From Polyangia bacterium (lineage in GTDB: Bacteria; Myxococcota_A; Polyangia; Nannocystales; Nannocystaceae), in contig JAUHWG010000011.1 of NCBI GenBank assembly GCA_030424595.1, forward strand, positions 193,130-257,129: 64,000 nucleotides of DNA. The letters are read 5' to 3'. The notes beneath the pieces were generated by a model, which ran no database searches, was not told where the DNA came from, and saw nothing but the letters and a program-made list of their open reading frames with translations. Position numbers and translations under genes: made by a program. The number at the start of each line of letters is the position of its first letter. Positions within the stretch are counted from its first letter, which is position 1. Below are positions 4,928 to 60,930 of this stretch, one piece after another.

Positions 4928-7627
<2,700 letters not shown>

Positions 7628-14373: not shown

Positions 14374-15369
14374 ATGACGACGACACCGACGCTTCGCGGA
14401 TCCACCTGCGCCTCCTGGGGAGGTCTGGTCTTTCTTCCCCTGGTGCTCGGTCTCGGTGCGGCAGACGCCCTCTCGCCCGAGATGGGCGAGCCCGCGCAGG
14501 CGCCGATCCTCGAGGTCGAGGCCAGCTCGCTGAAGCTCGGCGCTGCGGTCATCGACGGCGAGGTCGGCTGTCAGGGGGGCTCGCTCGCGGTCGATGTCGA
14601 CGATGAGGCCATCGCCGGTGATCCGCTGGTCGGCGTCTGGCAGCGCTTCGCGGCCCACGCCGAGGGGGACACCGTCCGCTTCTATTACTTCCACGGCGAC
14701 GGAAACGGCCTCTACCGCTACGGCAAGGTCGGCCTGACCAACACCCACGCCTTCGACTACCGCGTCGCTGAGGGGCGCGTCCGGCTGCGCTTTCGCAAGA
14801 CCGGCGAGGAGGCGTCGATCCCCTTCACGATCACCGCCGATCCGGAGCGTGAGGGTCGCTCGTGGCTGACCCTCGACGGTGATCCGCGGGACGGTGAAGG
14901 CCGCTACTTCCGCGACCCGCGGACGGCCGCAGAGTCCTGCGAGATCAGCGACGCGGCGACAAACGACGCGCCCCGGGGCATCGGCAACCGCCTGTGGAGC
15001 GAGGAGCGGAGCTTCGCCGCCGGCGGCATGGGCTTCGCGATGTATCAGCTCCAACCCCAGACCATCGACGGGCGCGGCGTCGGCTGGTTCCACCGCGGCG
15101 ACTTCGACGAGTGGACCACCGAGGCGCTCACCTACCGCCGCCAGGGGGACACCCTGACCCTCCACTTCATGCTCAGCGGCGAGTCCCTGTCGACGCCGAT
15201 GTCGCTCGTCGCCGGCAGCGGCGGCCGCGGTGAGGAGACGCGGACGCTCGAGCTCGCGGATGATCCGAGGAACTACTGGCATCGCCAACGCTATCTCGAC
15301 CGCGGGCCCTCGTTCGCCGCGGTTCAGGAGCTGGGCGGCGGGATCCTGCCGGGTCTCTGCGCTCCCTGA
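14374..15369 (+). CDS. Hypothetical secreted protein
   Basis: N-terminal signal-like hydrophobic segment GGLVFLPLVLGLGAADA. GC3-biased frame. No recognisable motif. Confidence 0.5.
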   Translation: MTTTPTLRGSTCASWGGLVFLPLVLGLGAADALSPEMGEPAQAPILEVEASSLKLGAAVIDGEVGCQGGSLAVDVDDEAIAGDPLVGVWQRFAAHAEGDTVRFYYFHGDGNGLYRYGKVGLTNTHAFDYRVAEGRVRLRFRKTGEEASIPFTITADPEREGRSWLTLDGDPRDGEGRYFRDPRTAAESCEISDAATNDAPRGIGNRLWSEERSFAAGGMGFAMYQLQPQTIDGRGVGWFHRGDFDEWTTEALTYRRQGDTLTLHFMLSGESLSTPMSLVAGSGGRGEETRTLELADDPRNYWHRQRYLDRGPSFAAVQELGGGILPGLCAP

Positions 15370-15439: not shown

Positions 15440-17398
15440 ATGTCCTGTGCTCCTGCGCTCTGCCGTGCGCCTACCGTCCTGTCGAAGCCCGAGCGGAGCG
15501 GCCGCATGGGCGTCCCGTCGGGGAGGCTGTCGAGGGGTCTGTCGACTGCCGAGCGGAGCGACCGCCCGGGGGGGTTGTCGAACGCCGAACGGAGCGGCCT
15601 GTCGAGCGGCCTGTCGAGCGCCCCGTCGGGCGCCTGCTCGCGTTCTCCGTCGAGCGTCCCCTGGACCCGGTCCATCGCTCCCTCGGGCCTCCGGTCGTTC
15701 GCGCCGTCGGTCGTTCGCGCTTGCGCCGGCGTCGGAGCCTGCCTCGCGCTCATCGGCTGTACGGAGTGGTCGCCGAGGGCGGACCTCGAGGGGCCGCGGG
15801 TGCTCAGCGCCAGCCTCGTCGGCCCTCGATCGGTCGAAGTCGGGGTCGCGGAGATCTTGGAGGTCAGCTTCTCGGAGCCGCTCGATCCGGAGAGCCTCAG
15901 CGCAGGCTCCGTCGCGATCGTCCCGTGGGTCGAGGTCGGCCGCTGCGATCGGACACCGCATTGCGACATAGGCTCCTGCGAGCGCGGTCGTTGCCAGGTC
16001 GATCCGCTCAGCACGGGAGACCTCGGGCGGCTCGATCGCGGCGTCTACGAGCCCGAGGTCGCCCTCCAGTGGTCGCTCGGTCCCTCCGCTGCGGGTCCTT
16101 CGTCACGCTTAGAGATCTGGCCGGAGGCGGCGCTCGCCGGGGGCTGGCGCCACTCGCTGATCCTCGGGGGCGCTCTGCGAGATCGCTCGGGGGCGCCCTT
16201 GGTCGACGATGAGGGCGAACGGTCTGGTTGGCGGCGGGACTTCGTCACCGCGCCGCCCGGCTCGTCGGGACCGGAGGCGAAGCTCGTCACCCCGGCCAGC
16301 GGCGAGCTGGTCCCCCGCAACCTCGCGCGGGTCGTGACGGAGTTCACCGCGCCGGTCGACGACGCGCTGCTCGGGGCGAGCCTCGATCTCCTGGGCGAAG
16401 ACGGTTCGCGCGCCCTCTTGGAGGAGCCGGTCCCCTGCGCCGGGTGGGTCCCCGGATATTGCCTCGAGTGGTCCCTCTCCGCGCCGCTGGAGCCGGGCGT
16501 CGCCTATCGGATCGGCGGGGGGTCTCTGCGGGATCGCCGAGGCCGGAGCGCCGTCGTGCCCCACCTCTTCGAGTGGTTCGCCGCGTCGCCTGTCGCCGAT
16601 GAGGAGCCGCCGGATCCCGGTCAGGTGAGGGTCGAGCGGCGCGGAGGTTGCGTGCACGCGGTGCTCGAGGGGGACGAGCCGCTGACGCTCCAGCTCGAGC
16701 TCGACGGGAGGGTCGCGACCGCAGGCGGCGCAGCAGGGGAGCGCCTCGAGGTCGCCATCAGGATCGACGGATCGCCTCCCCAGGGGTCCCTGACCGCCTC
16801 GCTGACGCTCGAGGACCGCGCTGGGAACCGCGCGAGCGACTCCCGCGACGTCGACCTCTCGGGCGCTGACATACCCCCGCTCGCGCTCGTCGAGGTGCTC
16901 GCCAACCCCGCGGGGCGCGAGCCAGATCAGGAGATGGTCGAGCTGGTCGACGTCCGCGTCGACGGGCCGACCCTCGAGGTCGAGGGCCTGTGGTTCGCCG
17001 ATCTCGCCTGGTCGGAGGTCGCGGCCGCCCTCATCGCCGGAGACCCGCCGGGGCGGCCCCTGCCGAGCTTTCTGAGCGTGCCTGGGCAGCGGACCGTGGT
17101 CGTCGGTGATCGCTATGTCCTGGGTGATCCCGCCGATCCCGACCCCGACGCGGAGACGACGCTCGTCGTCCTCGATGGTTCCCTCGGCGCCGGCGGCCTG
17201 GGCAACGGCGGCGAGCCGATCGTGATCTACGAGCCGCTGACGGCGACGCTGGTCACCTCCTACGAGCGGCCGCTCGAGGTGCGCGGGGCCGCAGATCAGG
17301 GCCGGAGCGCGGTCAATTCGCACCCCTCGGCCTGTGACGTCGGGGCGGCCTGGGAGGTCCATCCGCTGGGCGTGTCGTCGCCGGGGTGGGCGCCCTGA
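15440..17398 (+). CDS. Lipoprotein with Ig-like (BIG/SbsA-like) domains and a C-terminal lamin-tail domain (LTD). Start uncertain.
   Basis: Lipobox RACAGVGACLALIGCTEW. Repeated ~100-aa beta-rich modules. C-terminal LALVEVLANPAGREPDQEMVELVDV matches the LTD consensus (INEVLANPAG...E[FW]VEL). The n-region upstream of the lipobox is unusually long and repetitive. Confidence 0.6.
   Translation: MSCAPALCRAPTVLSKPERSGRMGVPSGRLSRGLSTAERSDRPGGLSNAERSGLSSGLSSAPSGACSRSPSSVPWTRSIAPSGLRSFAPSVVRACAGVGACLALIGCTEWSPRADLEGPRVLSASLVGPRSVEVGVAEILEVSFSEPLDPESLSAGSVAIVPWVEVGRCDRTPHCDIGSCERGRCQVDPLSTGDLGRLDRGVYEPEVALQWSLGPSAAGPSSRLEIWPEAALAGGWRHSLILGGALRDRSGAPLVDDEGERSGWRRDFVTAPPGSSGPEAKLVTPASGELVPRNLARVVTEFTAPVDDALLGASLDLLGEDGSRALLEEPVPCAGWVPGYCLEWSLSAPLEPGVAYRIGGGSLRDRRGRSAVVPHLFEWFAASPVADEEPPDPGQVRVERRGGCVHAVLEGDEPLTLQLELDGRVATAGGAAGERLEVAIRIDGSPPQGSLTASLTLEDRAGNRASDSRDVDLSGADIPPLALVEVLANPAGREPDQEMVELVDVRVDGPTLEVEGLWFADLAWSEVAAALIAGDPPGRPLPSFLSVPGQRTVVVGDRYVLGDPADPDPDAETTLVVLDGSLGAGGLGNGGEPIVIYEPLTATLVTSYERPLEVRGAADQGRSAVNSHPSACDVGAAWEVHPLGVSSPGWAP
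15485..15720 (+). repeat. Degenerate ~21-24-bp tandem repeats (CTGTCGANNGCCGAGCGGAGCG..., about 5 units) at the 5' end of, or upstream of, the following lipoprotein gene
   Basis: Read directly. The repeat translates as LSKPERSG / LSTAERSD / LSNAERSG / LSSGLSS. No start codon exists between the repeats and the lipobox. Confidence 0.5.
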
Positions 17399-19770
17399 TG
17401 GCGACGGGGCAGGGCGGCGCGGGTGAGCGAGCGCGTGCCGGGGGGCTTTCGCCGCAGCCAGAGCTGTCGCATGCTGCGGCGGGTATGGCCATCTCCGGCG
17501 ACGCCCTCCTCGGCCGCGATGGAACGCCTGAGGTTCGCCTCGAGGGCCGCGTCCTCAGCATGGTCTTCCACTCGCCGAAGACCCGGTACACGGTGCTCAA
17601 GGTCTACATCCAGGGAACCCTGGATCCGACGACCTGGGTCGGCCGCTCGCTCGGCGTCGAGGAGGGGGCGCAGGTGTCGGCCGCCGGCGAGTGGGTGATG
17701 CACCCGGAGCACGGCCGCCAGTTCTCCTTCGCCCGCCTGGTGGTCAAGGCGCCGACGACCATCGCCGGGATCCAGCGCCGCCTCGAGAAGTACCCGGGCC
17801 TCGGCAGGGACAAGGCGGAGAAGATCGTCAAGCGCTTCGGCGCCGACACCTTCGCGATCCTCGACAAGGAGCCCCGTCGTCTGGTCGAGGTCGAGGGGAT
17901 CGGCCCCAAGACCCTAGAGCGGGTGGTCGAGTATCACGCGAGCCGCTCGGGGCCGGTCGCAGAGGTCGAAAACCAGCTCATCGAGCTCGAGCTGCCGACC
18001 TACCACGCCGACGCCCTGGTCCGCTGCTTCGGCAACGACGCGCTGATGGTCCTCCGGAATCACCCCTATCGCCTCGCCCGTGAGGTCCGCGGGATCGGCT
18101 TTCTCACCGCCGATCGGATCGCCCGGGCCCTCGGCGTCGATATGGACAGCGACGACCGGGTCGACGCGGGTCTCCTCTACGTGCTCGAGCAGGCGGAGAG
18201 CGACGGCCACTGTGCGCTGCCCCGGGACCGCCTGCTCCACACGGCGATCAGCCTCCTCGCGCTTCCCGGCAGCCGCGAGCTCGACTCCAGCGTCCACAGC
18301 GACCGGATCGATCCGATGCGCCTGGACGCCGGGATCGAGCGCCTCTTGAGCTCCGCCGAGCTTGTCGCCGAGGAGCGGGTGAACGCGCCGCCGCTCCTCT
18401 TCCTCGCCGATCTCTACGCGGCCGAGGAGAACGTCGCCCGGGTTCTCGGCGACCTGACGACGACGGCCCACGAGCGCTGGAACCCGGGCGAGCTGCCGGC
18501 GAACCTCAGCCCAGGCCAGGTCCAGGCCGTCCGGGCGATCGCCGACGCCGGCCTGGTCGTGCTCACGGGCGGGCCCGGCACCGGCAAGAGCACGGTGATC
18601 CGCCAGGTGATCGAGATGGCGCTCGCCCACGAGTGTGACCTCATGCTGGCCGCGCCGACCGGGCGCGCGGCGAAGCGCCTGGCCGAGGCGACAGGTCAGG
18701 AGGCGAAGACGATCCACCGCCTCCTCGAGATCCAAGGGAGCAGCGGCGCCTTCACCTACCACGCCAACAACCCGCTCCCGGGGCCGGCGCTGGTCGTCAT
18801 CGACGAGGCGTCGATGCTCGACATCAGCCTCGCCGACGCGCTCTTCTCGGCGCTGACGACCGAGCATCGGCTGATGCTCGTCGGCGACGTCGATCAGCTC
18901 CCCTCGGTCGGCCCGGGCAACGTGCTGCGTGACGTGCTCGCGGCCGCGGAGCGCCCTGGATCGCCGATCCCGGTGGTCCGGCTGCAGCAGATCTTTCGCC
19001 AGGCGGAGGGCTCGTCGATCATCGTCAACGCGCACACGATCCTCGAGGGAGGGCGCCTGGTCCCGGACAGCGGCGGCGAGGGGCAGTTCTTCGTCGTCAA
19101 CGCCCGCGACGCCGAGCGGGCCCACGAGCTGATCATGAAGGCGGTCTGTGAGCGGGTGCCGGAGACCTACGGCCTGGATCCGCGGACCGACGTCCAGATC
19201 CTCTGCCCGATGCACAAGGGCAAGGCGGGGACCACAGCGTTCAACCGGGCGCTCCAGGAGCGCTTCACCGCGGGGGAGCCGGAGGTCGTTCTCGACGGCG
19301 GCGGGCGGATGCAGCCGCGGCGCTTTCGCGTCGGCGACCGGGTCATGCAGACCCGCAACGACTACGACCGCAACGTCTTCAACGGCGACATCGGCCTGGT
19401 GAGCAGCGTCAACGAGGGCAAGCAGAGCCTAGTCGTCGAGATCGACGGGATCCCGGTGGCCTACGAGAACAAGCAGCTCGTCGCGCTCCAGCTCGCCTAC
19501 GCGGTGACGATCCACAAGAGCCAGGGCAGCGAGTTCCCGGCGGTGATCATCCCGCTCCTCGGCGAGCACCACGTCATGCTCCGGCGAAACCTCCTCTACA
19601 CCGCCGTGACCCGGGCCCAGCGCCTCTGCCTCGTGGTCGGCGATCCCCGAGCGATCGCCAGGGCGATCCGTCAGGCGGACGCGTCCCGTCGCTTCACCGG
19701 CCTGGGCAACCGCCTCGCGGGGACGCTCCGCGAGGCGATGGGGGAGAGCGAGATCGTCTATGTGGATTGA
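17398..19770 (+). CDS. recD2: RecD2-type ATP-dependent DNA helicase (SF1B, RecD-like)
   Basis: N-terminal OB-like domain and HhH region (YPGLGRDKAEKIVKRFG). Walker A VLTGGPGTGKST. DEAS-type motif (VIDEASMLD). YAVTIHKSQGSEF C-terminal motif. ATG overlaps the upstream stop (TGATG). Confidence 0.85.
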   Translation: MATGQGGAGERARAGGLSPQPELSHAAAGMAISGDALLGRDGTPEVRLEGRVLSMVFHSPKTRYTVLKVYIQGTLDPTTWVGRSLGVEEGAQVSAAGEWVMHPEHGRQFSFARLVVKAPTTIAGIQRRLEKYPGLGRDKAEKIVKRFGADTFAILDKEPRRLVEVEGIGPKTLERVVEYHASRSGPVAEVENQLIELELPTYHADALVRCFGNDALMVLRNHPYRLAREVRGIGFLTADRIARALGVDMDSDDRVDAGLLYVLEQAESDGHCALPRDRLLHTAISLLALPGSRELDSSVHSDRIDPMRLDAGIERLLSSAELVAEERVNAPPLLFLADLYAAEENVARVLGDLTTTAHERWNPGELPANLSPGQVQAVRAIADAGLVVLTGGPGTGKSTVIRQVIEMALAHECDLMLAAPTGRAAKRLAEATGQEAKTIHRLLEIQGSSGAFTYHANNPLPGPALVVIDEASMLDISLADALFSALTTEHRLMLVGDVDQLPSVGPGNVLRDVLAAAERPGSPIPVVRLQQIFRQAEGSSIIVNAHTILEGGRLVPDSGGEGQFFVVNARDAERAHELIMKAVCERVPETYGLDPRTDVQILCPMHKGKAGTTAFNRALQERFTAGEPEVVLDGGGRMQPRRFRVGDRVMQTRNDYDRNVFNGDIGLVSSVNEGKQSLVVEIDGIPVAYENKQLVALQLAYAVTIHKSQGSEFPAVIIPLLGEHHVMLRRNLLYTAVTRAQRLCLVVGDPRAIARAIRQADASRRFTGLGNRLAGTLREAMGESEIVYVD

Positions 19771-19809: not shown

Positions 19810-20526
19810 TTGAGCCAGCGCCTCCGCACGATCGCGCAGAAGCTCTTCGAGCGGCCTTCGCTCGGCCTCCTCGCCGCGGGGGGCTGCACGCGGATGGTCG
19901 CCTGCCGCCTGCCGCCGGAGCATCGCGCCCCCTTTGACGAGCTCCACGCGGCGCTCCGGCAGTGGCTCCCCGGCGAAGATCGGGCGGCGATCGTCGATCT
20001 CTACTGGCGCCTCTTCCCGGCCTGCATGCAGGTCTGTCTGCACTACAACAAGCGCAGCCATCCCAGCGACGCGACGATGAGCGCCGCGTATCTGCAGTTC
20101 CGCTGCCTCCTGCCGATGCTCGGGCGGGTGCTCCCCGCGGACGGCTTCTACGACATGGGCTTCGAGGACTTCCTTTCGACCGCGAAGCGCACGGCGAAGC
20201 CCGGCACCTCCGCGACCGTCCTCGCCCGCCGTTTCGAGCGGATCCTCGAGCTCGAGGCGCGCCCCTGGTCGGAGCAGTGCGGGGCGGTCGATCGCATGCT
20301 CTGGGAGGTGCCGGTCAAGGAGACCGCCTTCGCGCCCCGTCTGCGGCGGCTGGTCCTGCACCTCTCGGTGGGGGGCGCCTGGAGTTGGCGCGAGGTGTCC
20401 GGCGCTCGCCTCCTCCACTTTCAGGGGGAGGGCGGTGCGGTCTCGCTGGTGCTCTCCGCGGAGGAGCGAGCGGCCCTCGCAGCGCTCTGCCCCCCGCTCG
20501 CGGCCGCTGACGAGGCCCCTCGTTGA
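19810..20526 (+). CDS. Hypothetical cytoplasmic protein
   Basis: GC3-biased ORF between recD2 and a convergent gene. No recognisable domain. Non-ATG start. Confidence 0.4.
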   Translation: MSQRLRTIAQKLFERPSLGLLAAGGCTRMVACRLPPEHRAPFDELHAALRQWLPGEDRAAIVDLYWRLFPACMQVCLHYNKRSHPSDATMSAAYLQFRCLLPMLGRVLPADGFYDMGFEDFLSTAKRTAKPGTSATVLARRFERILELEARPWSEQCGAVDRMLWEVPVKETAFAPRLRRLVLHLSVGGAWSWREVSGARLLHFQGEGGAVSLVLSAEERAALAALCPPLAAADEAPR

Positions 20527-20683: not shown

Positions 20684-22543
20684 TCAGCGCTTGAGCTTGT
20701 AGCGGAACGAGACGCTCAGCGCCTCGTCGAGGGCGAGGAGCTTCTCAAAGTTCGTCGCCTTGCCCTGGAGCGGGAGGCTGACGGGGACCGGGACGGCGCC
20801 CTCGCCCAGGGAGCCGTTGTCGGCCTGGCTCTGGCCCTGCTGGGCGACCTCGGGGGAGGCGGTCTCGATGACGTAGACGTCGCCCTCGGGGATCGGATCG
20901 GATAGGTAGCGGACCTTGCGGAGGTCGCCGTCAAAGCTCCACTTGCGGATCTTCGTCCCGGTCGGCGAGTAGACCGTCCAGGCGACGTAGGTGCTCGGGG
21001 CGTCGGCGCGGGGGAGCTCGGCCTTGAAGGAGCCGCGCCCGTTCTTCGGGGTCTTCTCGCCGCTCTCGACGTAGACGACCTCGACGTTAAAGGCCGCCAG
21101 CGAGCCGCCTGAGGTCTGCGAGCGCAGCAGCGGGATCATCACCCGACCGTCGCCGGCCTTCGCCGGCTGGACCGCTCGGCCGCCGACCGAGACGCTCCAC
21201 AGCTCAGCCCCGCCGGGGAGCTCCAGGCGGAGGAACTGCCGCCGGTTGTTGCGGATCTGGTAGCGGACGGAGGTGATCCGCCGGCCCTCGGGGGTCCACA
21301 TCGTCCGCGCCCGGATCTGGTCCAGGATCGTCACCAGGACGTCGATGTCGTCGTGCTCGGCGATCTCGAGCGGCACGTCGACGTCGGCGCCGAGGTACTT
21401 GTAGCCGAGGAGCACGGGCTTGCTGGTGATCCCGAGGATCGCCGCCGGCAGCGAGCGGACGTCGACGGTCGTCGCCCCCTTCACCTTGCCGGCCGAGATC
21501 TCGTGGTTGCCGCGGGACTCGACGCCGATGTAGCCCTTCGAGCGCTCGACGTTCTGCGGGACGATGACCGGCGCCTCGAGCTTCTTGGAGCCCTCGCCGA
21601 TCACCTTCTCGAGCTCGATCCCGAGGCTGTAGCTGCCCTCGGCGGCGTAGTTGAGGACGACCCGGAGCTCCTCGCCCTCGAGCTTCCAGTCGCGGATACC
21701 GTTGCCGGTGACCGCCAGGATCGTCATCCCCTTGGGGACCTTGAGCCGAAGCTCGGACTGACCGGCGAAGAGGATCGTGTAGGCGACGCTGGCGTTCGCC
21801 TTCATCAGGCCCTCGCCGAGGCTGACGAGGGTGTAGACCTCGGAGTAGACCCGCGACTTCTGCTTGGCCGCCTCGGGGATCTCGCGCTGCCACTCGATCA
21901 CGAGCGAGCCGGTGGCGGGGAGGGTCGCCTCGACCAGGCGCTTGTCGCCCTCGATGCGGTCGGACTGGAGGCGGGCGTTCGCGACCGTGAAGTCGAGCTC
22001 GTCGCTCGCCGGCACCGCGAGGGTGACGGTCGTCGCCCCGGAGGGCACGAGCTCGAAGTTGACGTTGCTCTTGCCGGCGCTGGTCGAGATCCCGGCGGCG
22101 AACTCGAGCTCGAGCTCAAAGGCGCCAGGGCGCTTGGTGACGAGGGTGTAGTAGTCGTTCTCGATGACGACGGCGGCCTCCGCCCCGCCGACCGTCGCCG
22201 ACTGGAGGGCGACCGTCGCCGGCAGGATCGGCACCCGCACCCAGCCGTCCTTCTTCAGGTTCTCGATCCGCATCGTGGTCTTAAAGACGGCAGAGGTGGG
22301 ATCGCCCTCGGCGACCAGGACCTCGCCGGAGTAGCGCGCCGAGGCGATCGCGTAGTCGCGCGGGGACTTCTCGGCCTGGGCCAGCGCCTTGTTCGACTCG
22401 TAGAGCTTGAGGAACTCACCCAGCTTCATCACCACCCGCTCCGGTTCTTCGGCGTGGGCGAGGGTCGGGGTGAGCACGGCCCCGGCGGGGCTGAGGAGGG
22501 CGAGGGCGAGCACGAGGCTGCGGGTGGGGCTGAGCGTGTTCAT
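20684..22543 (-). CDS. Large secreted protein, paralog A of the tandem pair (distal gene of the three-gene envelope cluster)
   Basis: Signal peptide LVLALALLSPAGAVLTPTLAHA. Shares blocks with the 1044-aa neighbour: VTGNGIRDWKLEG / LTGNGIREWRRVG; SVRYQIRNNRRQFLRLELP...GRVMIPLLRS / RAHYEVRNERAAFLRVTPP...GAWLIPLRRS. Confidence 0.7.
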   Translation of the reverse strand: MNTLSPTRSLVLALALLSPAGAVLTPTLAHAEEPERVVMKLGEFLKLYESNKALAQAEKSPRDYAIASARYSGEVLVAEGDPTSAVFKTTMRIENLKKDGWVRVPILPATVALQSATVGGAEAAVVIENDYYTLVTKRPGAFELELEFAAGISTSAGKSNVNFELVPSGATTVTLAVPASDELDFTVANARLQSDRIEGDKRLVEATLPATGSLVIEWQREIPEAAKQKSRVYSEVYTLVSLGEGLMKANASVAYTILFAGQSELRLKVPKGMTILAVTGNGIRDWKLEGEELRVVLNYAAEGSYSLGIELEKVIGEGSKKLEAPVIVPQNVERSKGYIGVESRGNHEISAGKVKGATTVDVRSLPAAILGITSKPVLLGYKYLGADVDVPLEIAEHDDIDVLVTILDQIRARTMWTPEGRRITSVRYQIRNNRRQFLRLELPGGAELWSVSVGGRAVQPAKAGDGRVMIPLLRSQTSGGSLAAFNVEVVYVESGEKTPKNGRGSFKAELPRADAPSTYVAWTVYSPTGTKIRKWSFDGDLRKVRYLSDPIPEGDVYVIETASPEVAQQGQSQADNGSLGEGAVPVPVSLPLQGKATNFEKLLALDEALSVSFRYKLKR

Positions 22544-22567
22544 CGGCGGGTTGCCTTTCTTTTAGAG

Positions 22568-25500
22568 CTATCGGCTCTTGCGGCTCTTGCGGCGCTTGCG
22601 GGGCTTGCGGCCCGTGCGGCGCGGCAAGAGCGGCTCGCGGGCGGTGATCTCGACGCTGTAGGCGGCGTCAGGGGGGAGCAGGAGGCGTTGGTAGCGGATG
22701 GCCTCGCCGGCGGCGGGGATGACGACGGACATCGCCGAGGCTTGGACCTCGGGGGCGGCGAGGCGACCGAGCCCGCCTCGTCCCTCAGTCGCGTCGGGCT
22801 CGTCCGGGACGCCGTCGCTGTCGCTCTCGCCCTCTTCGTAGCTCTTCATCGCGACGTCGGCGGGGGGCGGCGCGGAGTCCTTGTCGGCCCGTCGCATGCT
22901 GCGGCTGCGGCGACGCTCCGCGCGGGATCGGATCTTGAGCACGGAGCTGCGACCGCTCGTCGAGGAGATCGCCGGGCGCTCGAAGAGCGAGGTCGTCGGG
23001 TCGGTCGTATCCTCGACGTACTCCTGGACGATCGCGGCGCGGGCACTGCCGAAGGCGGGCGAGCTGACGTTCGCGCCATCGACGGCATACTTGGTCTCGG
23101 CGCCGGTCGTCCCCGCGAGCTTGATCCCCGCGCTGTCGCGGCTCGCTGTCGGCGCGATGTCGACGACGCTGGAGAAGTCGCTGGTAGAGCCTACCGGGAT
23201 GTTGCGCGCCTCATCCCTCGAGACCCGGACGCCGTTGCTTGACGTGTTGGGGCTGGCGTCGCCATCGATGGGCGGCTCCGCGGTGACGCCGGGCGTCGAG
23301 GCTACGGGCGCTGGTCCGCTCAGCTGGGGCGGCTGGGTCGGCTGGGTCGGAGGCACCTCGGCGAGCTCCTCGACCGCGCCGACGCTCTGACCGTCGGGGC
23401 GGAGGAGCACGCCGTCGATGTTGTCGTCCTCGAAGCTGTAAAGGATCGTACCGCTGCCGCTGCCGTTGGGAGGAGCGCTACTACCACCACCGCCAGCGCC
23501 AGCGGCGTCAGCGGAATTCCCGTCACGAACGCCACCAGCGCGAGCGCCGAAGCTCGCGGGCGCCCTCTGCTTGTACGCCGGCTCCATCTCCTGCTCCAGC
23601 TCCTTCCGCTTCTTCTTGCTGCTGAAGCGGGAGCGGCGGGCCTTGGTCTTCTGCACGGAGGCGTAGCTGCGCTGGAGCTCGTCGTTGGTCGACCGCTGCT
23701 CGACCGACTCCTCCTGCTCCAAGAGGGCGAGGCGCTCGCCGAGCTCGATCGCCTGGGTGTACTCCGCCTCGGCCTTCTCGTAGTCGCCGGAGCGGCTGTA
23801 CTCCTCGGCCCTCTTCTTGCTGAGCTCCTGCCGCTGGATGTCCTCGGCGGCCCGGGCTTTGGCCTGCTCCTTGATCCGGCGCTCGATCGCCGCATCCCCG
23901 CCGGAGCTGCTCTTGTTCTTGTCCTCGCCGCCCTGGATCACGTCGAGGTTCGCCTGCAGACGCTCGATGTTCTCGTTCGACGCGCCGAGCTCGCGGAGGG
24001 CGTCGAGCTCCGCCTGCGCCCCCGCAAAGTCGTTGTTCATCCAGCTGCCGACCGCGTTTTGGAAGCGGGCGTCCGCCTCGGCGACGCCGACCTCGCCGAT
24101 GCCCATGCCGTAGTTGATCCCTTCGCCGCGGGTGAACTCGTCGACGACATCACCGTCGCCGGCCTTGACCCGGCTGGAGTAGCCGGGCGGCAGGTGGAGG
24201 GTGAGGCGGGTGACCGCGACCGGAGCGCTGACCGTCGGCAGCGGGAGGTCGCGGCGCTCCCGCCTGGCCCAAGCGGTCGACTCCCCCAAAAGGGTGACCT
24301 CGACCGGGAAGGAGAGCGCCCCCTTGACGGTCTCGATCGACCGCCGGAGCGGGATCAGCCAGGCGCCGTCCTCGTCGCGGGCGGGCAGGGCCGTCTCACC
24401 GGAGACCTGGGCCCCGAGGATCCGCATGCGGGGGGGCGGGGTGACCCGGAGGAAGGCGGCGCGCTCGTTGCGGACCTCGTAGTGGGCGCGCATCAGCGTC
24501 CGCCCCTCGCGGCTGGTGGCGACCGTGATCCCAGCGACGTCGACGACCACCGGCGGGCTCTCGACGGGGACGAAGCGGAGCAGCGAGAGCTCGCCGCCCT
24601 GGCCCTCGTTGGCCGTGTAGGCCGCGGTCGGCGTGCCCTCCACCAGGCCGCTGCCCCAGCTCGGGAGATCGGCGCTGGCGACCGCGGTCCAGGCCTTCAT
24701 CGTCGGGATCACCTCGATCTCGCTGTCGCGGGCGATCTGCACCGAGTGGGCCCCGCGGAAGACCTCCACGGGCGTGAGCCGCGGGATCGGCTGGCTGGAC
24801 TCGGTCGCCTTCGCCAGCGCCTTGGTCCAGCGGAGGTCGATCGCGACGCGGTCGCGGGTCGGCGCCTGGAGGTCGACCTCGATCCTGTCGCCGACCCGCC
24901 GCCACTCGCGGATCCCGTTCCCCGTGAGCTCTAAGTCCTCGCCGAGCTCGCGGGCCTCAAAGCTGACCCGATCGATCGCGCCGCGGAGGACGGTCCAGGT
25001 GAGCTGAGCCCGGCCGCGCAGATCGGAGTCGCCGACGGTGAGGCCGATCCCGGTGGTGGCGGTGACCAGGGCTGTGGTGTCCGCCGGCTGCCTCGGACGC
25101 TGGCTGATCGCGAGCCTGCCGGCGCCGGAGAGGATGACATCGCCGGCGCGGGCGGGCGGAAGCTCCGGCGTCTTCGGATCCTCGACGTGGAGGCGCTGGT
25201 CTTCGGGGGCGGGAGGGAGCGTGACGCGGCCGCTGACCGCGGCCATCAAGTCCAGCGTGAGCGGGGAGTTGGCCGGGTCGCCGACGACGAACGCCTCGAC
25301 CTCGAGCGTCGCTCGGTCGCGGACGTAGCCGGCGACGATCGTCATCTCATCGCTGCGGTCGATCGCCGCGGGGCGGCCGTTCCAGGTCGCCGAGCGGATC
25401 TCGACCCCGGGCCCGAGGAGGTCGCCGAGGAACCATCCGGGCTTGGCGCTGCGGATCCTCCAGCGCCCGCGGATCCGCAGGCCGTCCCCCTCGCGGAGGA

Positions 25501-25702
25501 GCTCGACGTCGCGGTCCGCGACCCACGGCCCGGGAGGGGCCATCTCTTCGGCGCCGGTCTGCACGTCCTGCCAGCGCGCCCCGTCGATCTCGACGGTGCC
25601 GCGAGGGGACGCGAACACGAGGACGCTGAGGAGGAGGGAGGGCAGCACGGTCGGAATCACCCTAGCGGGCCCAGGAGACGGCCGCGCCTGGGGGGTATTC
25701 AA
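22568..25702 (-). CDS. Large secreted protein, paralog B. Adds a long coiled-coil/low-complexity C-terminal extension and a highly basic tail.
   Basis: Signal-like N-terminus PTVLPSLLLSVLVFASP. Paralogous core to 20684..22543. Lys/Glu-rich coiled-coil region (KEQAKARAAEDIQRQELSKKRAEEYSR...). TonB-box-like VVDIAPTASRD. C-terminal RKPRKRRKSRKSR. Confidence 0.7.
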   Translation of the reverse strand: MNTPQARPSPGPARVIPTVLPSLLLSVLVFASPRGTVEIDGARWQDVQTGAEEMAPPGPWVADRDVELLREGDGLRIRGRWRIRSAKPGWFLGDLLGPGVEIRSATWNGRPAAIDRSDEMTIVAGYVRDRATLEVEAFVVGDPANSPLTLDLMAAVSGRVTLPPAPEDQRLHVEDPKTPELPPARAGDVILSGAGRLAISQRPRQPADTTALVTATTGIGLTVGDSDLRGRAQLTWTVLRGAIDRVSFEARELGEDLELTGNGIREWRRVGDRIEVDLQAPTRDRVAIDLRWTKALAKATESSQPIPRLTPVEVFRGAHSVQIARDSEIEVIPTMKAWTAVASADLPSWGSGLVEGTPTAAYTANEGQGGELSLLRFVPVESPPVVVDVAGITVATSREGRTLMRAHYEVRNERAAFLRVTPPPRMRILGAQVSGETALPARDEDGAWLIPLRRSIETVKGALSFPVEVTLLGESTAWARRERRDLPLPTVSAPVAVTRLTLHLPPGYSSRVKAGDGDVVDEFTRGEGINYGMGIGEVGVAEADARFQNAVGSWMNNDFAGAQAELDALRELGASNENIERLQANLDVIQGGEDKNKSSSGGDAAIERRIKEQAKARAAEDIQRQELSKKRAEEYSRSGDYEKAEAEYTQAIELGERLALLEQEESVEQRSTNDELQRSYASVQKTKARRSRFSSKKKRKELEQEMEPAYKQRAPASFGARAGGVRDGNSADAAGAGGGGSSAPPNGSGSGTILYSFEDDNIDGVLLRPDGQSVGAVEELAEVPPTQPTQPPQLSGPAPVASTPGVTAEPPIDGDASPNTSSNGVRVSRDEARNIPVGSTSDFSSVVDIAPTASRDSAGIKLAGTTGAETKYAVDGANVSSPAFGSARAAIVQEYVEDTTDPTTSLFERPAISSTSGRSSVLKIRSRAERRRSRSMRRADKDSAPPPADVAMKSYEEGESDSDGVPDEPDATEGRGGLGRLAAPEVQASAMSVVIPAAGEAIRYQRLLLPPDAAYSVEITAREPLLPRRTGRKPRKRRKSRKSR

Positions 25703-25764
25703 ACGTGGCGATGCTTGGGTCGATCTGCGACATCGGAGATCGGCAGAGAGAGCCCTCTAGGACG

Positions 25765-25807
25765 CCCTTTGAGGCCGAATCACGAAGTGAAGGGCGGCCT
25801 CAAAGGG
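25765..25807. other. Perfect 13-bp stem (CCCTTTGAGGCCG / CGGCCTCAAAGGG) with a 17-nt loop, between two co-oriented genes
   Basis: Read directly. No U-run on either strand, so it is not a canonical intrinsic terminator. Confidence 0.6.
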
Positions 25808-25895
25808 GGGCTGGTGGCGGGCTGGTGGGGCGCTGCGAGGAGCGTCGGCACTGGCCGGGTGTGAAGGACATCAGACTTGGCGCGCTCCAGAGGCC

Positions 25896-25943
25896 GGTCC
25901 TGGTCCTGGTCTTGGTCCTGGTCCTGGTCCTGGTCCGGGTCCG
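25896..25943. repeat. Hexanucleotide microsatellite (GGTCCT)n, about 8 units, intergenic
   Basis: ggtcctggtcctggtcttggtcctggtcctggtcctggtccgggtccg; read directly. Confidence 0.9.
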
Positions 25944-25990
25944 GGCGGTGACCAGGAGCTCGCCCGACAGGGTCCTTAGGGCGCAGCTCG

Positions 25991-28435
25991 CTAAAAGTGC
26001 AGCTTGAGGCGCTGCTTGATCAGCTTGCCGCGCGTCTTCGGGACGAAGGAGGCCTTCTTGAACTGGCGGTTCACACACTGGCGAAGGTTGCGGTCCATGC
26101 TGGAGTCGCCGACCCAGACCTCAGGGACAGTGCCGGTCGGCTCGTCGATCTCGACCTTCACCCGGACTAGGAGGCCTCGCTCGGCGAGCGGGCGGCACTC
26201 CTTGAGGGCGAGGAGCTCGGGCTGCGGGCTCTCTGGGGTGAGGGTCGCGACGCCGTAGAAGTCGCGGTCAGCGGCCACCGCAGGCTCCGCAGCGTCGTCC
26301 TCGGCCTCGGCCGAGTCCTCGTCATCACTACCGGGGAGAGGGGCCTCGCTGCCGATCGCGGCCGGGACCATCGACGCCTGGCTCGCCTTGATCTCGCTCG
26401 CCATCTCGGCGAGGGGGGCGGTGAGGCCTGCGCCGTCGCTGGCGGCGGGATCGGTGTTGACGCTGGCGACGTCGCCGGGGAGCGCCCAGTAGATGAGCAC
26501 GGCGACCGTCATCAGAGCCGCGGCGATGGCCATCGTCGGCCGACCGCGGCTGGAGCCGAGGCGGCGGCGATTGACGCGAGGACGACCGCTGCGGGTCCTC
26601 CTGCGGTCGAGGAGACGATTGGCGGCGACTCGGGCTCGGCCGACTGCGGCGGATGCCGCGGTCGCGGTCGCGGTCGCGGCCGTCGACGCAGCCGATGCCG
26701 CGGCGGTGGCCGAACGCCGGGCGCCCTTGCTCCATCGGGGATCGAGGCGTCGCTTCGGGTGTGGCCGGTTGATCGGGGCCTCCTCGAGCTCGTCACGATC
26801 GGGGGTCTCCGCCGGTGGGACGGCGGCGGCCGGGGGGAGGATCGCTGGGGCCGGAGCGGCAGCCCGCTTGACGGCGGTTGGAGCCGCGTTCGCGGGCTTC
26901 GCGGACCGGGTTGAGGCGGCGGTCGCAACGGTCTGCGGAGCCGCGTGGAGCGGAGCGGACGGCGTGCGATCGAGCGGAGGTGCGACCGGCGTGCCGGTGG
27001 GGCCTGTCCGCGGGCTCTGCGGTCCCGCCTCGACGCGCCGAGAGGGGGTCTCGGGGACCATCCGCCGCCGGCGACGTGCGGGCGTGTCCTCGCTCGTCGG
27101 CGGGACATGACGGTCGAAGAACTCCGCGAGGGAGACGTCCTCGGTGTGACCGTCGCTGTCGCTGCGGAGCTTCGATCCTCCGCCGATCGCCTCGGGGCTG
27201 GGCAGGTCGTCGAAGTTGAAGCGCATCGCGGCTCGCGGGGCCGGCGTGGTCACCTGGGCGGTGGCGGCGGGCCGGAGGGGCTGGGACGGGGCCGCGGGCG
27301 TCTGCGGCTTGGCGACGACCCGGGGCGCCTCGGGCTTGGCGATGGCCTCGGTCGCGCTCGTCGGCCGCGCGGGCTCCGGCGGCGGGATCACAGCCGCGGG
27401 CCGCATCGCCGCCTTCGGCGGCTCCTCTGCGCTCGGGAGCTCGAAGTCGGCGAAGGCCTCATCGATGTCGACGGCCAGGGACTCCTCGTCGCTGGAGGGT
27501 GCGTCGTCGAAGTCGACCGGAGGAAGGTCGCCGAGCTCCGGCTCGTCGCGCCCGCGACGGAGGGAAGAGGCGGCGCTGCGGAGCGAGGCGGCGGCGCCTC
27601 GGAAGCTCGCGGCGATGTCACGGACCGAGGAGGCGAGGGGGCCCGGGCGGGGCGTCTCGTCCTCGAGGTCGATGTTGAGGTCGTCGAGGTGGTCGAGCGG
27701 GTCGTCGTCGTCGTCGAAGGGAGCGCCGGCGAAGTCATCGGAGGCCTGCGGCTCGGAGGCTGCGGCGAAGGCGTCGCGGAGGTTGGTGGTCGGCCGCCAG
27801 GGCTCGGGAGCGGCGGGGGTCTCGGGGACCGGCGTCGGGGCGGCCGCGAGCGGCTCCGGGGCGTCGGCCTCAGGGGCGGTCTCCACGGCGGCGGGAGTGG
27901 CCGTGCGCTTCGCGGCGCGGGGCTCCACCGGAGCGGCTGCGGGTGTCGCCGTGCGCTTCGCGGGGAGGGGCTCCGTGACGATCTCGACGGGAGCAGCCAC
28001 AGCGGACGTGCTCGCGGGGGCCGCTGCGGTCTCGCTCGGCTCCTCGTCCTCGTCCTCGTCGAGCTCGATCTCCAGGCTGTGCTGCCCGGGCTTCACCGCT
28101 GAGATCAGCGCGAGCACGGTCGCGACCTCCTTCGACGAGACCTCAAAGCAGGTCGGCTCGCCGCGGGTGGGGAGGCTGAGCTGGACCGACCAGCTCTCGG
28201 CGAGGAGCATCGCCCGCTCGTTCGGATCGAGGTCGAGGCGACGGTAGGCCGCCCTCGCCGATCCGCGGGTCAGGACGATCAGCTCCCCGTGAAAGAGGAG
28301 GAGGTGGGTCTCCCCGAGGAGGCCGTCCGGGCCGCCTCGGAGGGGCACGTGGTGGGAGATCTGGGACTGATCGATCCCACGGGGCAGGTGCTCGAGCAGC
28401 TCCCCTGGCAGCGGGCGTATCGCCATAGCGGGCAC
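25991..28435 (-). CDS. Proline/alanine-rich single-pass membrane protein with a C-terminal AgmX/PglI-like (TonB-C-like) periplasmic domain. First gene of the envelope cluster.
   Basis: Cytoplasmic N-domain of about 120 aa. Long P/A/E-rich region with the repeat AKRTATPAA x2. TM helix MAIAAALMTVAVLIYWALPG. C-terminal about 80 aa LKECRPLAERGLLVRVKVEIDEPTGTVPEVWVGDSSMDRNLRQCVNRQFKKASFVP, with the same two-Cys architecture as the kinase C-terminus at 7350..7620. Confidence 0.65.
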   Translation of the reverse strand: MPAMAIRPLPGELLEHLPRGIDQSQISHHVPLRGGPDGLLGETHLLLFHGELIVLTRGSARAAYRRLDLDPNERAMLLAESWSVQLSLPTRGEPTCFEVSSKEVATVLALISAVKPGQHSLEIELDEDEDEEPSETAAAPASTSAVAAPVEIVTEPLPAKRTATPAAAPVEPRAAKRTATPAAVETAPEADAPEPLAAAPTPVPETPAAPEPWRPTTNLRDAFAAASEPQASDDFAGAPFDDDDDPLDHLDDLNIDLEDETPRPGPLASSVRDIAASFRGAAASLRSAASSLRRGRDEPELGDLPPVDFDDAPSSDEESLAVDIDEAFADFELPSAEEPPKAAMRPAAVIPPPEPARPTSATEAIAKPEAPRVVAKPQTPAAPSQPLRPAATAQVTTPAPRAAMRFNFDDLPSPEAIGGGSKLRSDSDGHTEDVSLAEFFDRHVPPTSEDTPARRRRRMVPETPSRRVEAGPQSPRTGPTGTPVAPPLDRTPSAPLHAAPQTVATAASTRSAKPANAAPTAVKRAAAPAPAILPPAAAVPPAETPDRDELEEAPINRPHPKRRLDPRWSKGARRSATAAASAASTAATATATAASAAVGRARVAANRLLDRRRTRSGRPRVNRRRLGSSRGRPTMAIAAALMTVAVLIYWALPGDVASVNTDPAASDGAGLTAPLAEMASEIKASQASMVPAAIGSEAPLPGSDDEDSAEAEDDAAEPAVAADRDFYGVATLTPESPQPELLALKECRPLAERGLLVRVKVEIDEPTGTVPEVWVGDSSMDRNLRQCVNRQFKKASFVPKTRGKLIKQRLKLHF

Positions 28436-28699
28436 AGTGTAGCGGAGGCGTCTACGACGGGAAGGTGGATTGCGTGGTGCGAGGATCGAGGTTGAGGCCG
28501 AGGTCGGCTCACCCTGCGGCGCCGGTGAAGCGGACGTCGCTCACCACTTGACCGACATGCCACGTCCTCCCCCCATCGCCAAATTTTTGCGTAGAGGCGA
28601 GAAACATGCCTCGGAGGGCCCTCTGTGGATCGTCTAGCGCCTCGCCGCAGGGTCTCGGAGGAGCCGCGGATCGGGGCCTGTGCGGCAGCTCTACAGGTT

Positions 28700-28800
28700 T
28701 TCACCGAGATCGGTTCATTGAGATCGGCTCAGGGAGATCGGCGCCTGGATCGAAAGCGCCGAGATCGGCCCGGGTGAGATCCGAGAGATCGAAGTCCTGG
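28700..28800. repeat. Array of about 6-7 degenerate 14-bp tandem repeats (core GAGATCGG) about 270-370 bp upstream of the cluster's first gene
   Basis: GAGATCGG at 28706, 28720, 28734 and 28761, with degenerate copies at 28747, 28786 and 28794. No credible ORF spans the 28436..29066 gap. Confidence 0.6.
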
Positions 28801-29066: not shown

Positions 29067-30593
29067 TCAGGGGGCGTGAGCAGGCCTCTTCGGCGCCTTC
29101 TGCCGTCCTCGCAGCGCCGGCTCGGCCCGTCGCCAGCCGCCGGAGCTCTCCTCCAAAGCCTCGGCGACCGCCAGGGTGAGGTGGTCGGCGCCGCGGCGGC
29201 CGATCACCTGGACCGCGAGGGGGAGCCGGCGATCAAAGCCCATCGGCACCGTCGTCGACGGGAACTCGAGGACGTTGAAGAGCCCGGTGCAGACGAAGTC
29301 GAAGGGGGTCAGCAAGGGACCGTGATGCCGCGGCGCCGGCCTCGTGTAGGGCGGGAGGAGGAGCACTCCGTTGGACCCGAGGATGTCCTCGAGCTCCGCC
29401 TGCAGCACCTTGCCGGCGTCGACCATCGCCTGGACCTGGGAGGGGATCCAGCGGGTGAGCCCCTCGGCGGCGACGACCAGGAGCGCGGGCAGGGTGTGGT
29501 GCGAGCGGCCGACGAGGGCCTTCATCAGCTCCCGCACGGTCCTCAGCGGGACGCCGCCGCCGAGCAGCTCCGAGTAGCTCGGGCCCCCCGCCGCGGTCAT
29601 CATCGACGACCAGATCATGAAGGCCCGCCGCAGCGCGGCCTTGGGCAGCTCGGCGATCGTCGCCCCGCGATCGGCGAGGGCGTCGGCGGCGTTGCGGACC
29701 GCGAGGCGCATCGACGGCCGGACCCGAGGCCCCGGATCCTCGACCGGGAAGGCGACGACATCGGCGAGGTCGACCTCCCCCGGCTGGCCGAGCGACCAGG
29801 GGCGGGCGACCGGATCGACGCCGTCGGGGCCCGCGAGGATCCGCATCAGGGGCATCACGTCCCGGACTCGGCGGGTCAGCGGTCCGCAGACCAGGTAGGC
29901 GCTGAGCTCTCCCTCCGCCTCCGGCCAAAAGCCGGTGTTGGGGACCATGCGACCTGTCGGCTTGTGACCGACGACGCCGCAGAAGGCCGCCGGGATCCGG
30001 ATCGAGCCGCCGACGTCCGCGCCCAGGGCGAAGGGCACCCCGCCCGCGGCGACGATCGCCCCGTCGCCGCCGGAGGATCCGCCGCAGGTCCGGCTGATGT
30101 CCCAGGGGTTGCAGGTCCGCCCGTAGACCCGGTTGTAGGTCTCGAGCCAGAGGCCTCCCTCGGGCACGTTGGTGGTGCCGACGAGGATCGCCCCGGCGTT
30201 GCGGAGGCGGCGGATCGTCTCCGCGTCGGTCGTCGAACGAACATGTCTCCGCGACCAGACGCCGCCGGTCAGCGGCATGCCCTCGGCGGCGATGTACTCC
30301 TTGGCGGTGAACGGGATCCCGAGGAGCGGGGGCAGGGCGTCGGGATCGTCGGCGCTCATGATCCGCCGCTCGGCGGCGACGGCCTCGTGGCGCGCAGTCC
30401 CGTAGCGCTCGGCGATCACCGCGTTGATCAGCGGATTGACGGCTTTGATCCGTCGAATGTGATGGTCGAGCACCTCGACGGGCGAGACCTCTCGGCGGCG
30501 GATCTTGTCGGCGAGATCGGGGAGTGCACTGTCGAGAAGATCGTCCACGGAGGCCAATGTAGCGGACTTTCTGCGCCCGTTGTCATGGGCCAT
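29067..30593 (-). CDS. Amidase (amidase-signature family; Asp-tRNA/Glu-tRNA amidotransferase-A-like fold)
   Basis: AS signature GGSSGGDGAIVAAGGVPFALGADVGGSIRIPAAFCGVVGHKPT with the Ser-cisSer-Lys context. ATG at 30593. Confidence 0.85.
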   Translation of the reverse strand: MAHDNGRRKSATLASVDDLLDSALPDLADKIRRREVSPVEVLDHHIRRIKAVNPLINAVIAERYGTARHEAVAAERRIMSADDPDALPPLLGIPFTAKEYIAAEGMPLTGGVWSRRHVRSTTDAETIRRLRNAGAILVGTTNVPEGGLWLETYNRVYGRTCNPWDISRTCGGSSGGDGAIVAAGGVPFALGADVGGSIRIPAAFCGVVGHKPTGRMVPNTGFWPEAEGELSAYLVCGPLTRRVRDVMPLMRILAGPDGVDPVARPWSLGQPGEVDLADVVAFPVEDPGPRVRPSMRLAVRNAADALADRGATIAELPKAALRRAFMIWSSMMTAAGGPSYSELLGGGVPLRTVRELMKALVGRSHHTLPALLVVAAEGLTRWIPSQVQAMVDAGKVLQAELEDILGSNGVLLLPPYTRPAPRHHGPLLTPFDFVCTGLFNVLEFPSTTVPMGFDRRLPLAVQVIGRRGADHLTLAVAEALEESSGGWRRAEPALRGRQKAPKRPAHAP

Positions 30594-30662: not shown

Positions 30663-32732
<2,070 letters not shown>

Positions 32733-39056: not shown

Positions 39057-39263
39057 GAGCGTTCCTTCCTGGGGGCGAGCTCGGGGCCGCTCGCGCATGT
39101 GTGGCTGTCGATGAAGCGCCTCTGTCGGGGCATCGCGGTCCCTGCCGATTCGCTGCTGGCCGAAGCCGCTGGGCTCCGGCGATGGGAGGCTGCCGCGGGC
39201 TCTAGGGATCGTCAAGCGGGGGCCTGGGCTCGAACGCGCGCGAGCGCTACCCTGCACCCCGCC

Positions 39264-41285
<2,022 letters not shown>

Positions 41286-60899: not shown

Positions 60900-60930
60900 C
60901 GCCGCGGCCGAAGAAGCGTCGGAGAACCAG

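Follow-up and report, generated by a model that had tools for sequence, protein, structure and literature searches.

Large secreted or membrane-anchored all-beta envelope proteins of unknown function, sometimes with a coiled coil between the beta regions, are represented by the DUF4139/DUF4140 (MuiA-like) and BatD-like groups. In the Glt focal-adhesion machinery, GltG and GltJ are laid out as a cytoplasmic N-domain, a transmembrane (TM) helix and a periplasmic tail. Both are inner-membrane proteins with predicted TolA-like folds (PMC9946355). A Glt/Nfs-type system combines a TolQR-like motor, TPR/periplasmic proteins, outer-membrane beta-barrels and a cluster that is conserved as a unit, and TonB combines an N-terminal membrane anchor, a periplasmic Pro-rich spacer and an ExbB/ExbD motor. 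The C-terminal domain of TonB is a compact alpha/beta fold (short helix, beta-beta-alpha-beta) to which a TonB box binds by strand addition. Here we compare these systems with a locus in a 64-kb stretch of DNA (the window; G+C content ~70%) from a Polyangia bacterium of the Nannocystaceae, contig JAUHWG010000011.1, in which gene 1 and two paralogs, B and A, follow one another on the minus strand behind an amidase gene:

20684..22543, minus strand: paralog A, 619 amino acids (aa), with a signal peptide (AHA/EE), one helix and a beta-sandwich chain; the conserved core member of its family
22568..25702, minus strand: paralog B, an open reading frame (ORF) of 1044 aa, A-like at aa 80-520 and with C-terminal strands at aa 981-1020
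25991..28435, minus strand: gene 1, 814 aa, a clade-restricted bitopic membrane protein
29067-30593, minus strand: amidase gene, upstream of gene 1 and co-oriented with gene 1, B and A

An initial annotation of this DNA had joined gene 1, B and A into a single trans-envelope device of the Glt/Nfs style. With moderate confidence, we instead take the functional unit to be the B-A pair (25660..20684, minus strand) and not the three genes, and suggest that it would form a secreted heteromeric scaffold or binding platform. The underlying gene calls were sound. Three co-oriented minus-strand ORFs were found where they had been placed, with a strong coding signal, and since their third-position GC (0.97, 0.92 and 0.88) fits coding in a 70% GC genome, we regard all three as real genes. 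The translation start of B is most likely the GTG at 25660 and not the ORF end at 25702, given a CTAGGGTG context at this GTG that is kept in relatives L005 and L010. For gene 1, homolog alignment points to the ATG at 28426 as the most likely start. A gap of 24 nt separates A from B in the window, and in L006 and L013 the two genes overlap; the spacer between gene 1 and B measures ~330 nt and contains a strong hairpin.

Paralogs A and B and their protein family

That the two large genes are tandem paralogs is confirmed by BLASTP, in which A and B share 26% identity over 450 aa with 5% gaps (E=1e-16). Both start with Sec-type N-terminal signal sequences, as had been proposed, and the blocks quoted for them earlier (TGNGIR[DE]W, RxxYxxRNxRxxFLR and GxxxIPLxRS) are all found in the translations. 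The best homologs of the genes studied here come from Nannocystaceae metagenome-assembled genomes (MAGs), Paraliomyxa, Nannocystis and Plesiocystis, and A is 59-89% identical across the Nannocystineae.

The family to which A and B belong is unnamed and was defined by the profile of an alignment (A1) with A as its seed. Run against 1.84 billion representatives of clusters at 50% identity, a profile built from 26 A orthologs retrieved 4,922 of them at E<=1e-3, of which 1,653 reached E<=1e-30. Named sources are Verrucomicrobiota, Acidobacteriota, Candidatus Edwardsbacteria and MAGs labelled Altiarchaeales or Pacearchaeota; all of these relatives are labelled 'hypothetical protein' except for one with a generic pseudopilin label. 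One B ortholog carries the UniRef name 'VIT domain-containing protein'. Many family members are 1,400-2,600 aa long with 2-8 matched stretches, and Verrucomicrobiota relatives of A reach 2,300-2,600 aa with 6-8 stretches. In an Acidobacteriota MAG (L007, 10001-16917), two A-like modules share a 1,476-aa protein, and the next gene (788 aa) encodes a third. The family repeatedly shows tandem duplication and fusion. Both A and B match the profile over its full length, and the conserved blocks that define it lie at W286, R334-G337, N432-Q436-F437, P471-L472-S475 and E488-Y491. Across 29 sequences at 26-46% identity, the polar residues R334, D361, N432, Q436, E488 and Y491 are invariant, and E312, E348, H397 and S475 of A are near-invariant.

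Searches of curated collections returned no counterpart. In Pfam, neither A nor B matched DUF4139/DUF4140, VIT/VIT_2, BatD, Ribophorin_I or Peptidase_M1_N at E<=1, 29 diverse single-module relatives gave no match at E<=0.1, and seven long multi-copy relatives gave none at E<=0.01. In NCBIfam, A and B matched no family at a meaningful E-value and the 29 relatives matched none, and the family profile found no solved relative among PDB sequences. Membership in DUF4139, VIT, BatD or Ribophorin_I was rejected on the lack of profile matches, relatives included. The earlier statement that the paralogs fall in no characterised family is upheld for A, B and the 29 relatives, and the DUF4139/MuiA and BatD families that had been named as possible homes are excluded at the profile level, as is VIT. 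Literature searches on the TonB box in Glt proteins and on CglF/GltF yielded only background on GltG/J and GltA/B, and nothing on the family or on the motif of B described below. Since no curated family or solved structure is matched by sequence, we consider the family undescribed; judged by its profile, it is large and cross-phylum and not a small myxobacterial oddity.

An AlphaFold2 (AF2) model of A, with a mean predicted local distance difference test (pLDDT) score of 75.5 and 444 of 619 residues at >=70, shows the signal peptide and one helix, followed by beta-sandwich domains in a chain. The best Foldseek matches in the PDB were OST1/ribophorin I, integrin alpha legs and the M1 aminopeptidase N-domain, with E=6e-9 over ~420 columns for yeast and human OST1/RPN1, and the structural neighbors also include carbohydrate-binding and cohesin-like sandwiches. 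The largest predicted domain resembles the non-catalytic N-domain of M1 aminopeptidase, ribophorin I (OST1) and the VIT domain. Because identity in the structural alignments with these neighbors is 7-15% (TM-scores ~0.2), we interpret the resemblance to OST1 and the M1 N-domain as fold likeness and not family membership. A and B share with ribophorin I, the M1 N-domain and VIT the character of extracytoplasmic all-beta modules with no recognizable catalytic site. They differ in having no sequence-level relation to them (VIT, VIT_2, Ribophorin_I and Peptidase_M1_N are unmatched), in carrying no vWA, peptidase or oligosaccharyltransferase (OST) partner domain, and in occurring as paired or fused repeats.

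The concrete outcome is a family of predicted exported beta-sandwich proteins, very large and spread over several phyla, that has no Pfam, NCBIfam or structural representative and that takes the form, in the Nannocystineae, of a tightly linked and strongly conserved paralog pair. Defining the family, its localization and its partners would clear many 'hypothetical proteins' from myxobacterial, Planctomycetes-Verrucomicrobia-Chlamydiae (PVC) and acidobacterial genomes.

An insertion distinguishes B from A

A conservation profile built over 45 B homologs reveals three conserved regions, namely the A-like core at aa 80-520, a helical TPR-like block at aa 520-680, and aa 981-1020; residues 680-980 are of low complexity and variable. 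Local alignment places aa 981-1020 on the last two strands of A. On these alignments, B is best described as an A-like body with an insertion of ~450 aa in the loop ahead of the last two strands. The loop of A that corresponds to the insertion site (aa 554-590) is short and of low confidence in the AF2 model. The very basic tail attributed to B is present and follows the conserved C-terminal strands. Two features of the insertion are relevant to what follows:

23663..24145, minus strand: helical (TPR-like or coiled-coil) part of the insertion, B aa 520-680, column identity 0.4-0.6 across B homologs
23375..23449, minus strand: motif YxFEDDx[ILV]xGxhLxPxG, B aa 752-776, in the variable part of the insertion; segment match to NCBIfam NF033764

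Within the helical part, sub-threshold matches to TPR_1, TPR_2 and TPR_8 fall at aa 630-654. With a 51-aa segment of B as the query, the motif (YSFEDDNIDGVLLRPDG) aligned to positions 37-62 of the 88 in NF033764, the model for GltF/CglF, with E=9.3e-5 and 22.4 bits, the full-length cut-off being 90. B thus shares a segment of ~25 residues with this small gliding component of Myxococcus xanthus, and the segment recurs in B orthologs of several genera. It differs from GltF/CglF in that the match reaches 22 bits against a cut-off of 90 and falls in a variable loop within a protein of 1,030 aa. A strict regular expression recovered the motif in 40 of 120 B homologs, and in loci L001-L004 and L010, which represent several genera, it was found only in the B gene.

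The segment VVDIAPTASRD, singled out in the initial annotation as a TonB-box-like element, does occur in B and is part of a longer block found in 14 of the 120 homologs, but no tool backed a likeness to Oar-type receptors. A reading of the wider segment (IPVG..DF..VVD..PTA..AGI.LAGTTGAE..Y.VDGANV) as a piece of an Oar-type TonB-dependent receptor plug was rejected when Pfam, NCBIfam and the PDB gave no match; the best match in the VVD..PTA segment search was an irrelevant bL21 (E=0.23). Co-variation of the VVD..PTA..YxVDGANV segment with gene 1 was also rejected, as the B homologs that carry it in L014 and L015 are preceded by VgrG or BtpA and have no gene 1 beside them.

The B-A pair occurs without gene 1

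In seven loci, the B-A pair was found without gene 1 and with unrelated genes upstream. These are isonitrile-synthase genes in Plesiocystis pacifica (L002), a carboxylesterase in Nannocystis pusilla (L003), genes without any Pfam match in Paraliomyxa miuraensis (L004), and BtpA in both L014 and L015. The pair is also present without gene 1 in a deltaproteobacterial MAG (L006), and it is maintained in L013 even though A is only 43% identical there. When gene 1, its N-domain or its tail was used as a tblastn query, no match was obtained within 7-10 kb (less at contig ends) of the pair in L002-L004, L006 or L013-L015. On the large metagenomic contig of L014 (6658-13604), a VgrG-type gene (Phage_GPD, Phage_base_V, Gp5) lies directly upstream of B-A in the same orientation.

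Gene 1 precedes B-A only in window/L001, L005, L009, L010 and L011, and A is 87-89% identical in these loci wherever the locus includes it. Flanking genes in common with the window are the amidase (L001, L005), YebC, RuvC and RuvA (L005), and RecD2 (L001). Since the gene 1 loci are close relatives that share flanking genes, the adjacency of gene 1, B and A reads as ordinary synteny by descent. Gene 1 would then be a separate, clade-restricted inner-membrane protein, a neighbor rather than a demonstrated partner of B-A, in an arrangement most simply explained by shared ancestry.

The survey of synteny that had been suggested as a check on the three-gene device confines the order gene 1, B, A to close relatives, and the device itself is not supported, in that B-A stands alone elsewhere and that no motor or outer-membrane families were found in the window. 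Among its ~40 large ORFs, none belongs to the ExbB/D, TolQ/R, MotA, TonB-dependent receptor or outer-membrane barrel families. When the locus is compared with the components of a Glt/Nfs system listed above, the sole match is the 25-residue GltF-like motif. A Glt-like trans-envelope device is not backed by the comparative evidence and so should not be propagated as an annotation.

Gene 1 and its C-terminal tail

The bitopic layout proposed for gene 1, with an N-domain, a Pro/Ala linker, one TM helix and a two-Cys tail, was recovered in an alignment of four homologs (A3), with the following parts:

28085..28426, minus strand: N-terminal domain, aa 4-117, nearly invariant in A3; predicted cytoplasmic
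26480..26536, minus strand: TM helix, aa 634-652, read from the sequence and kept in A3, with an Arg-rich stretch before it and an acidic linker after it
25994..26269, minus strand: C-terminal tail, aa 723-814, with two Cys; candidate TonB-C-like domain

The middle of the protein contains short conserved blocks inside otherwise variable Pro/Ala-rich sequence, and the 92-aa tail is invariant, including C747 and C787 in all four homologs. By the positive-inside rule, we infer an N-in/C-out topology that would place the N-terminal ~630 residues, including the long, disordered Pro/Ala region, in the cytoplasm and the tail in the periplasm. Gene 1 is rare. Four homologs were found among 5.8 billion proteins, and 185,579 species genomes together with JGI metagenomes contained three loci (2+1), all of them close relatives.

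Structure prediction was of little help for this protein. The AF2 model has a mean pLDDT of 40, which makes it unusable, and Foldseek found nothing at E<=0.001 and no TonB match. For the N-domain, which has no Pfam or NCBIfam match, Foldseek gave only non-significant PH-like matches (best E=0.28, in a part of the model with a pLDDT of 50-68). In the tail, where pLDDT is <50, the order of secondary-structure elements (H739-752, E760-764, H782-793, E809-813) is compatible with TonB-C.

The initial annotation had likened the tail to the AgmX/PglI C-terminal domain, a TonB-C-like fold. This comparison survives in part, in that three models align to the same segment in the same register, but all of them score below their thresholds and support for the assignment is weak. 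The tail matched TIGR01352 with E=0.0039 and 17.5 bits (cut-off 27.1) and NF033768 (myxo_SS_tail) with E=0.018 and 15.2 bits (cut-off 40), and in isolation it matched PF03544 with E=0.05 and 14.5 bits (cut-off 24.6). The NF033768 alignment joins aa 757-807 to model positions 35-84 of 92 and so covers only the second tail Cys (C787). In hhalign, the tail aligned with the Escherichia coli TonB C-terminal domain in the expected register with E=0.028 and a probability of 1.8%, the TonB query having been confirmed as identical in sequence to PDB 1u07; the tail profile found no match among PDB sequences at E<=10. A TonB-C reading of the tail is plausible but unproven.

Gene 1 resembles TonB in being single-pass and in the register of its last ~60 residues with TonB-C models. 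It differs in that the anchor is not N-terminal (aa 634-652) and the Pro/Ala-rich region is placed on the cytoplasmic rather than the periplasmic side, so that the combination of anchor, periplasmic Pro-rich spacer and ExbB/ExbD motor is not seen. In architecture it is closer to GltG/GltJ of the Glt system, and its two conserved tail Cys may correspond to the Cys pair of the AgmX(GltJ)/PglI tail. It differs from these proteins in its confinement to one small clade, with no motor or Glt outer-membrane genes nearby.

Non-coding elements around gene 1

Four non-coding elements lie in the spacer between gene 1 and B and in the leader of gene 1:

25765..25807, unstranded: hairpin in the gene 1-B spacer, with a perfect 13-bp stem and no U-tract on either strand
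25896..25942, unstranded: (GGTCCT)7.8 microsatellite in the gene 1-B spacer (Tandem Repeats Finder (TRF) score 80, period 6, 92% matches)
28706..28791, minus strand: five CGATCTC direct repeats, three at an exact 14-bp spacing, ~280-365 nt upstream of gene 1
28556..28611, minus strand: invariant block in the gene 1 leader, AGGCATGTTTC ... CTACGCAAAAATTTGGCGA ... GACGTGGCATG, from a four-genome alignment (A5)

Both spacer elements reported earlier were recovered, the hairpin with its perfect 13-bp stem and the microsatellite, given as (GGTCCT)8, with 7.8 copies in TRF. The hairpin has a dG of -28.4 kcal/mol (z=-4.6; 0 of 200 shuffles folded as well) and matches no Rfam family. It was rejected as a repeated element of the repetitive extragenic palindromic (REP) kind, being unique in the window, and as an intrinsic terminator, having no U-tract and drawing no call in a terminator scan. 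Neither the hairpin nor the microsatellite is kept in the equivalent spacers of L005, L009 and L010, and we regard both as strain-level features of uncertain significance.

The leader was aligned between window 28556-28791 (minus strand), L005 9757-10180, L009 9586-10009 and L010 9586-10009. What had been called a 630-bp leader exists as a spacer but corresponds to the intergenic region between the amidase gene and gene 1. Likewise, the 14-bp tandem array reported within it is real in its repeats and smaller in its extent, as TRF found 2.6 copies at 28706-28742. The window contains 71 copies of CGATCTC in 64 kb, on both strands, and five of these cores fall within 86 bp of the leader. In each of L005, L009 and L010, three copies lie equally far ahead of gene 1 and partly keep the 14-bp spacing, and the cluster is probably a cis-regulatory site. 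The layout is one of repeated (GAG)CCGATCTC units followed by the invariant AGGCATGTTTC..CTACGCAAAAATTTGGCGA..GACGTGGCATG block. The nucleotides of this block are identical, against only 52-68% identity for gene 1 itself, and they include an A/T-rich run, which is unusual where GC content is 70%.

Two interpretations of the block were rejected: a sigma-54 promoter (GGCATG-N4-TCGC), as the -12 GC is not kept in L005 or L010, and an upstream ORF (MF..ATQKFG..TWH), as the codons CAA AAA TTT are invariant, with no synonymous change. Because these codons end in A/T where third-position GC is ~0.9, and do so without synonymous change, an element acting at the nucleotide level is more likely than an upstream ORF. 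The likeliest reading of the leader, from its alignment, is a binding array for a transcription factor (regulator) plus a promoter. As such, the CCGATCTC repeat cluster and the invariant block make a clean candidate for a transcription-factor binding site in a clade that has been little studied. One CGATCTC copy, with CTCTCTC ahead of it, is also present at 25736-25742 (minus strand), ~80 nt before the GTG at which B probably starts. It is reminiscent of the CTCTCGGATCTC with which the leader array of gene 1 begins and is not kept in L005 or L010.

Competing explanations for the locus

As we picture the B-A unit, the two proteins are predicted to be exported and to associate side by side as a pseudo-repeat array, which would act, without enzymatic activity, as a scaffold or binding platform, either periplasmic or at the cell surface. 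The helical and disordered insertion of B might offer docking sites that recruit other envelope proteins. Several observations weigh against this picture. A, at 59-89% identity across the Nannocystineae, is unusually well conserved for a passive scaffold, and the invariant polar residues R334, D361, N432, Q436, E488 and Y491 could indicate a catalytic or specific ligand site. The order amidase, gene 1, B, A is kept in five loci, and the CGATCTC copy upstream of B hints at a shared regulator, so that gene 1 and B-A may be co-regulated in this clade. Finally, the neighborhoods of family members in Acidobacteriota, Verrucomicrobiota, Edwardsbacteria and an unassigned contig showed nothing conserved and offered no functional hint.

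The first two of these points are the strength of an explanation in which A and B are enzymes, or specific receptors for an envelope polysaccharide, peptide or lipid, with the invariant polar residues as the active or binding site. High conservation of A, the persistence of the invariant and near-invariant positions across the 29 sequences, and the carbohydrate-binding and cohesin-like sandwiches among the structural neighbors all speak for it. Nonetheless, the closest folds (M1 N-domain, ribophorin I, VIT, integrin legs) are non-catalytic accessory domains, no catalytic family or solved enzyme is matched by sequence, and no substrate-related genes are conserved near the loci examined, and we consider this explanation doubtful. 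Control of read-through from gene 1 into B-A by a phase-variation or attenuation system, made up of the hairpin, the microsatellite and the repeat array, would account for a hairpin that is strong and statistically unusual, for a hexanucleotide repeat of ~8 copies that is slippage-prone in principle, and for CGATCTC repeats that are conserved upstream of gene 1. It is rendered very improbable by the absence of both hairpin and microsatellite from the L005, L009 and L010 spacers and by a hairpin that has no U-tract, terminator call or Rfam match. Moreover, the microsatellite is intergenic and therefore cannot shift a reading frame, and the sole conserved element, the CGATCTC cluster, is upstream of gene 1 and not of B.

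A single trans-envelope device of gene 1, B and A would require the tail to dock on a motif in the insertion of B by beta-strand augmentation, either the GltF-like YxFEDDxIxGxLxxPxG or VVDIAPTASRD, and so to couple a cytoplasmic sensing domain to the A-B scaffold. Its case is built on three TonB-C-type models and hhalign, which agree on one segment of the tail and on the expected register, and on the conserved pair of tail Cys, a layout of gene 1 that resembles GltG/GltJ, the match of the B motif to the GltF/CglF segment (E=9.3e-5), a gene order kept in five loci, and CGATCTC copies upstream of both gene 1 and B. The tail matches, however, are all below curated thresholds in a region of pLDDT <50 for which Foldseek found nothing significant, and the Pro/Ala-rich region is placed in the cytoplasm, unlike that of TonB. 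Many genomes have B-A, GltF-like motif included, but no gene 1 within 7-10 kb of it, the B homologs that carry VVD..PTA..YxVDGANV have VgrG or BtpA upstream instead of gene 1, and the five gene 1 loci are close relatives with general synteny. There is, in addition, no motor of the ExbBD/TolQR/AglRQS type or outer-membrane component in the window, and gene 1 is set apart from B by 330 bp that include a strong hairpin. We therefore regard such a device as unlikely. In its most specific form, the tail would be a highly diverged TonB-C/GltJ-type domain that grips the GltF-like motif of B, with a PH-like sensor coupled mechanically or allosterically to the A-B array. This version is a long shot, but if true it would represent a minimal relative of the Glt focal-adhesion machinery, either motor-less or powered remotely, and would provide the first functional handle on an unannotated cross-phylum family of thousands of clusters.

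Other genes in the window

A protein with DUF4215 Cys-rich repeats is encoded just past the amidase gene (30663-32732, plus strand), divergent from the gene 1-B-A cluster. A second DUF4215 protein is found at 58231-59727 (minus strand), and one of the two also has DUF7453. Three ORFs supported by third-position GC have no Pfam match (14374-15369, 15440-17398 and 19810-20526, all plus strand) and flank a RecD2-type helicase (17386-19770); the 652-aa one of the three overlaps the helicase start, and the same genes are called in L001. The radical-SAM ORF (Radical_SAM_N/DUF3362) at 37983-41285 (plus strand) starts ~446 residues ahead of its first domain match and overlaps the previous ORF (37252-38145); this mechanically called ORF is probably over-extended at its 5′ end. 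An EVE-domain gene adjoins a CYTH-domain gene at 59964-61452 (plus strand). Two Ser/Thr protein kinases are encoded at 4928-7627 and 53720-55774 (both plus strand), the former with a long extension at its N-terminus and a repetitive, Pro-rich region at its C-terminus.

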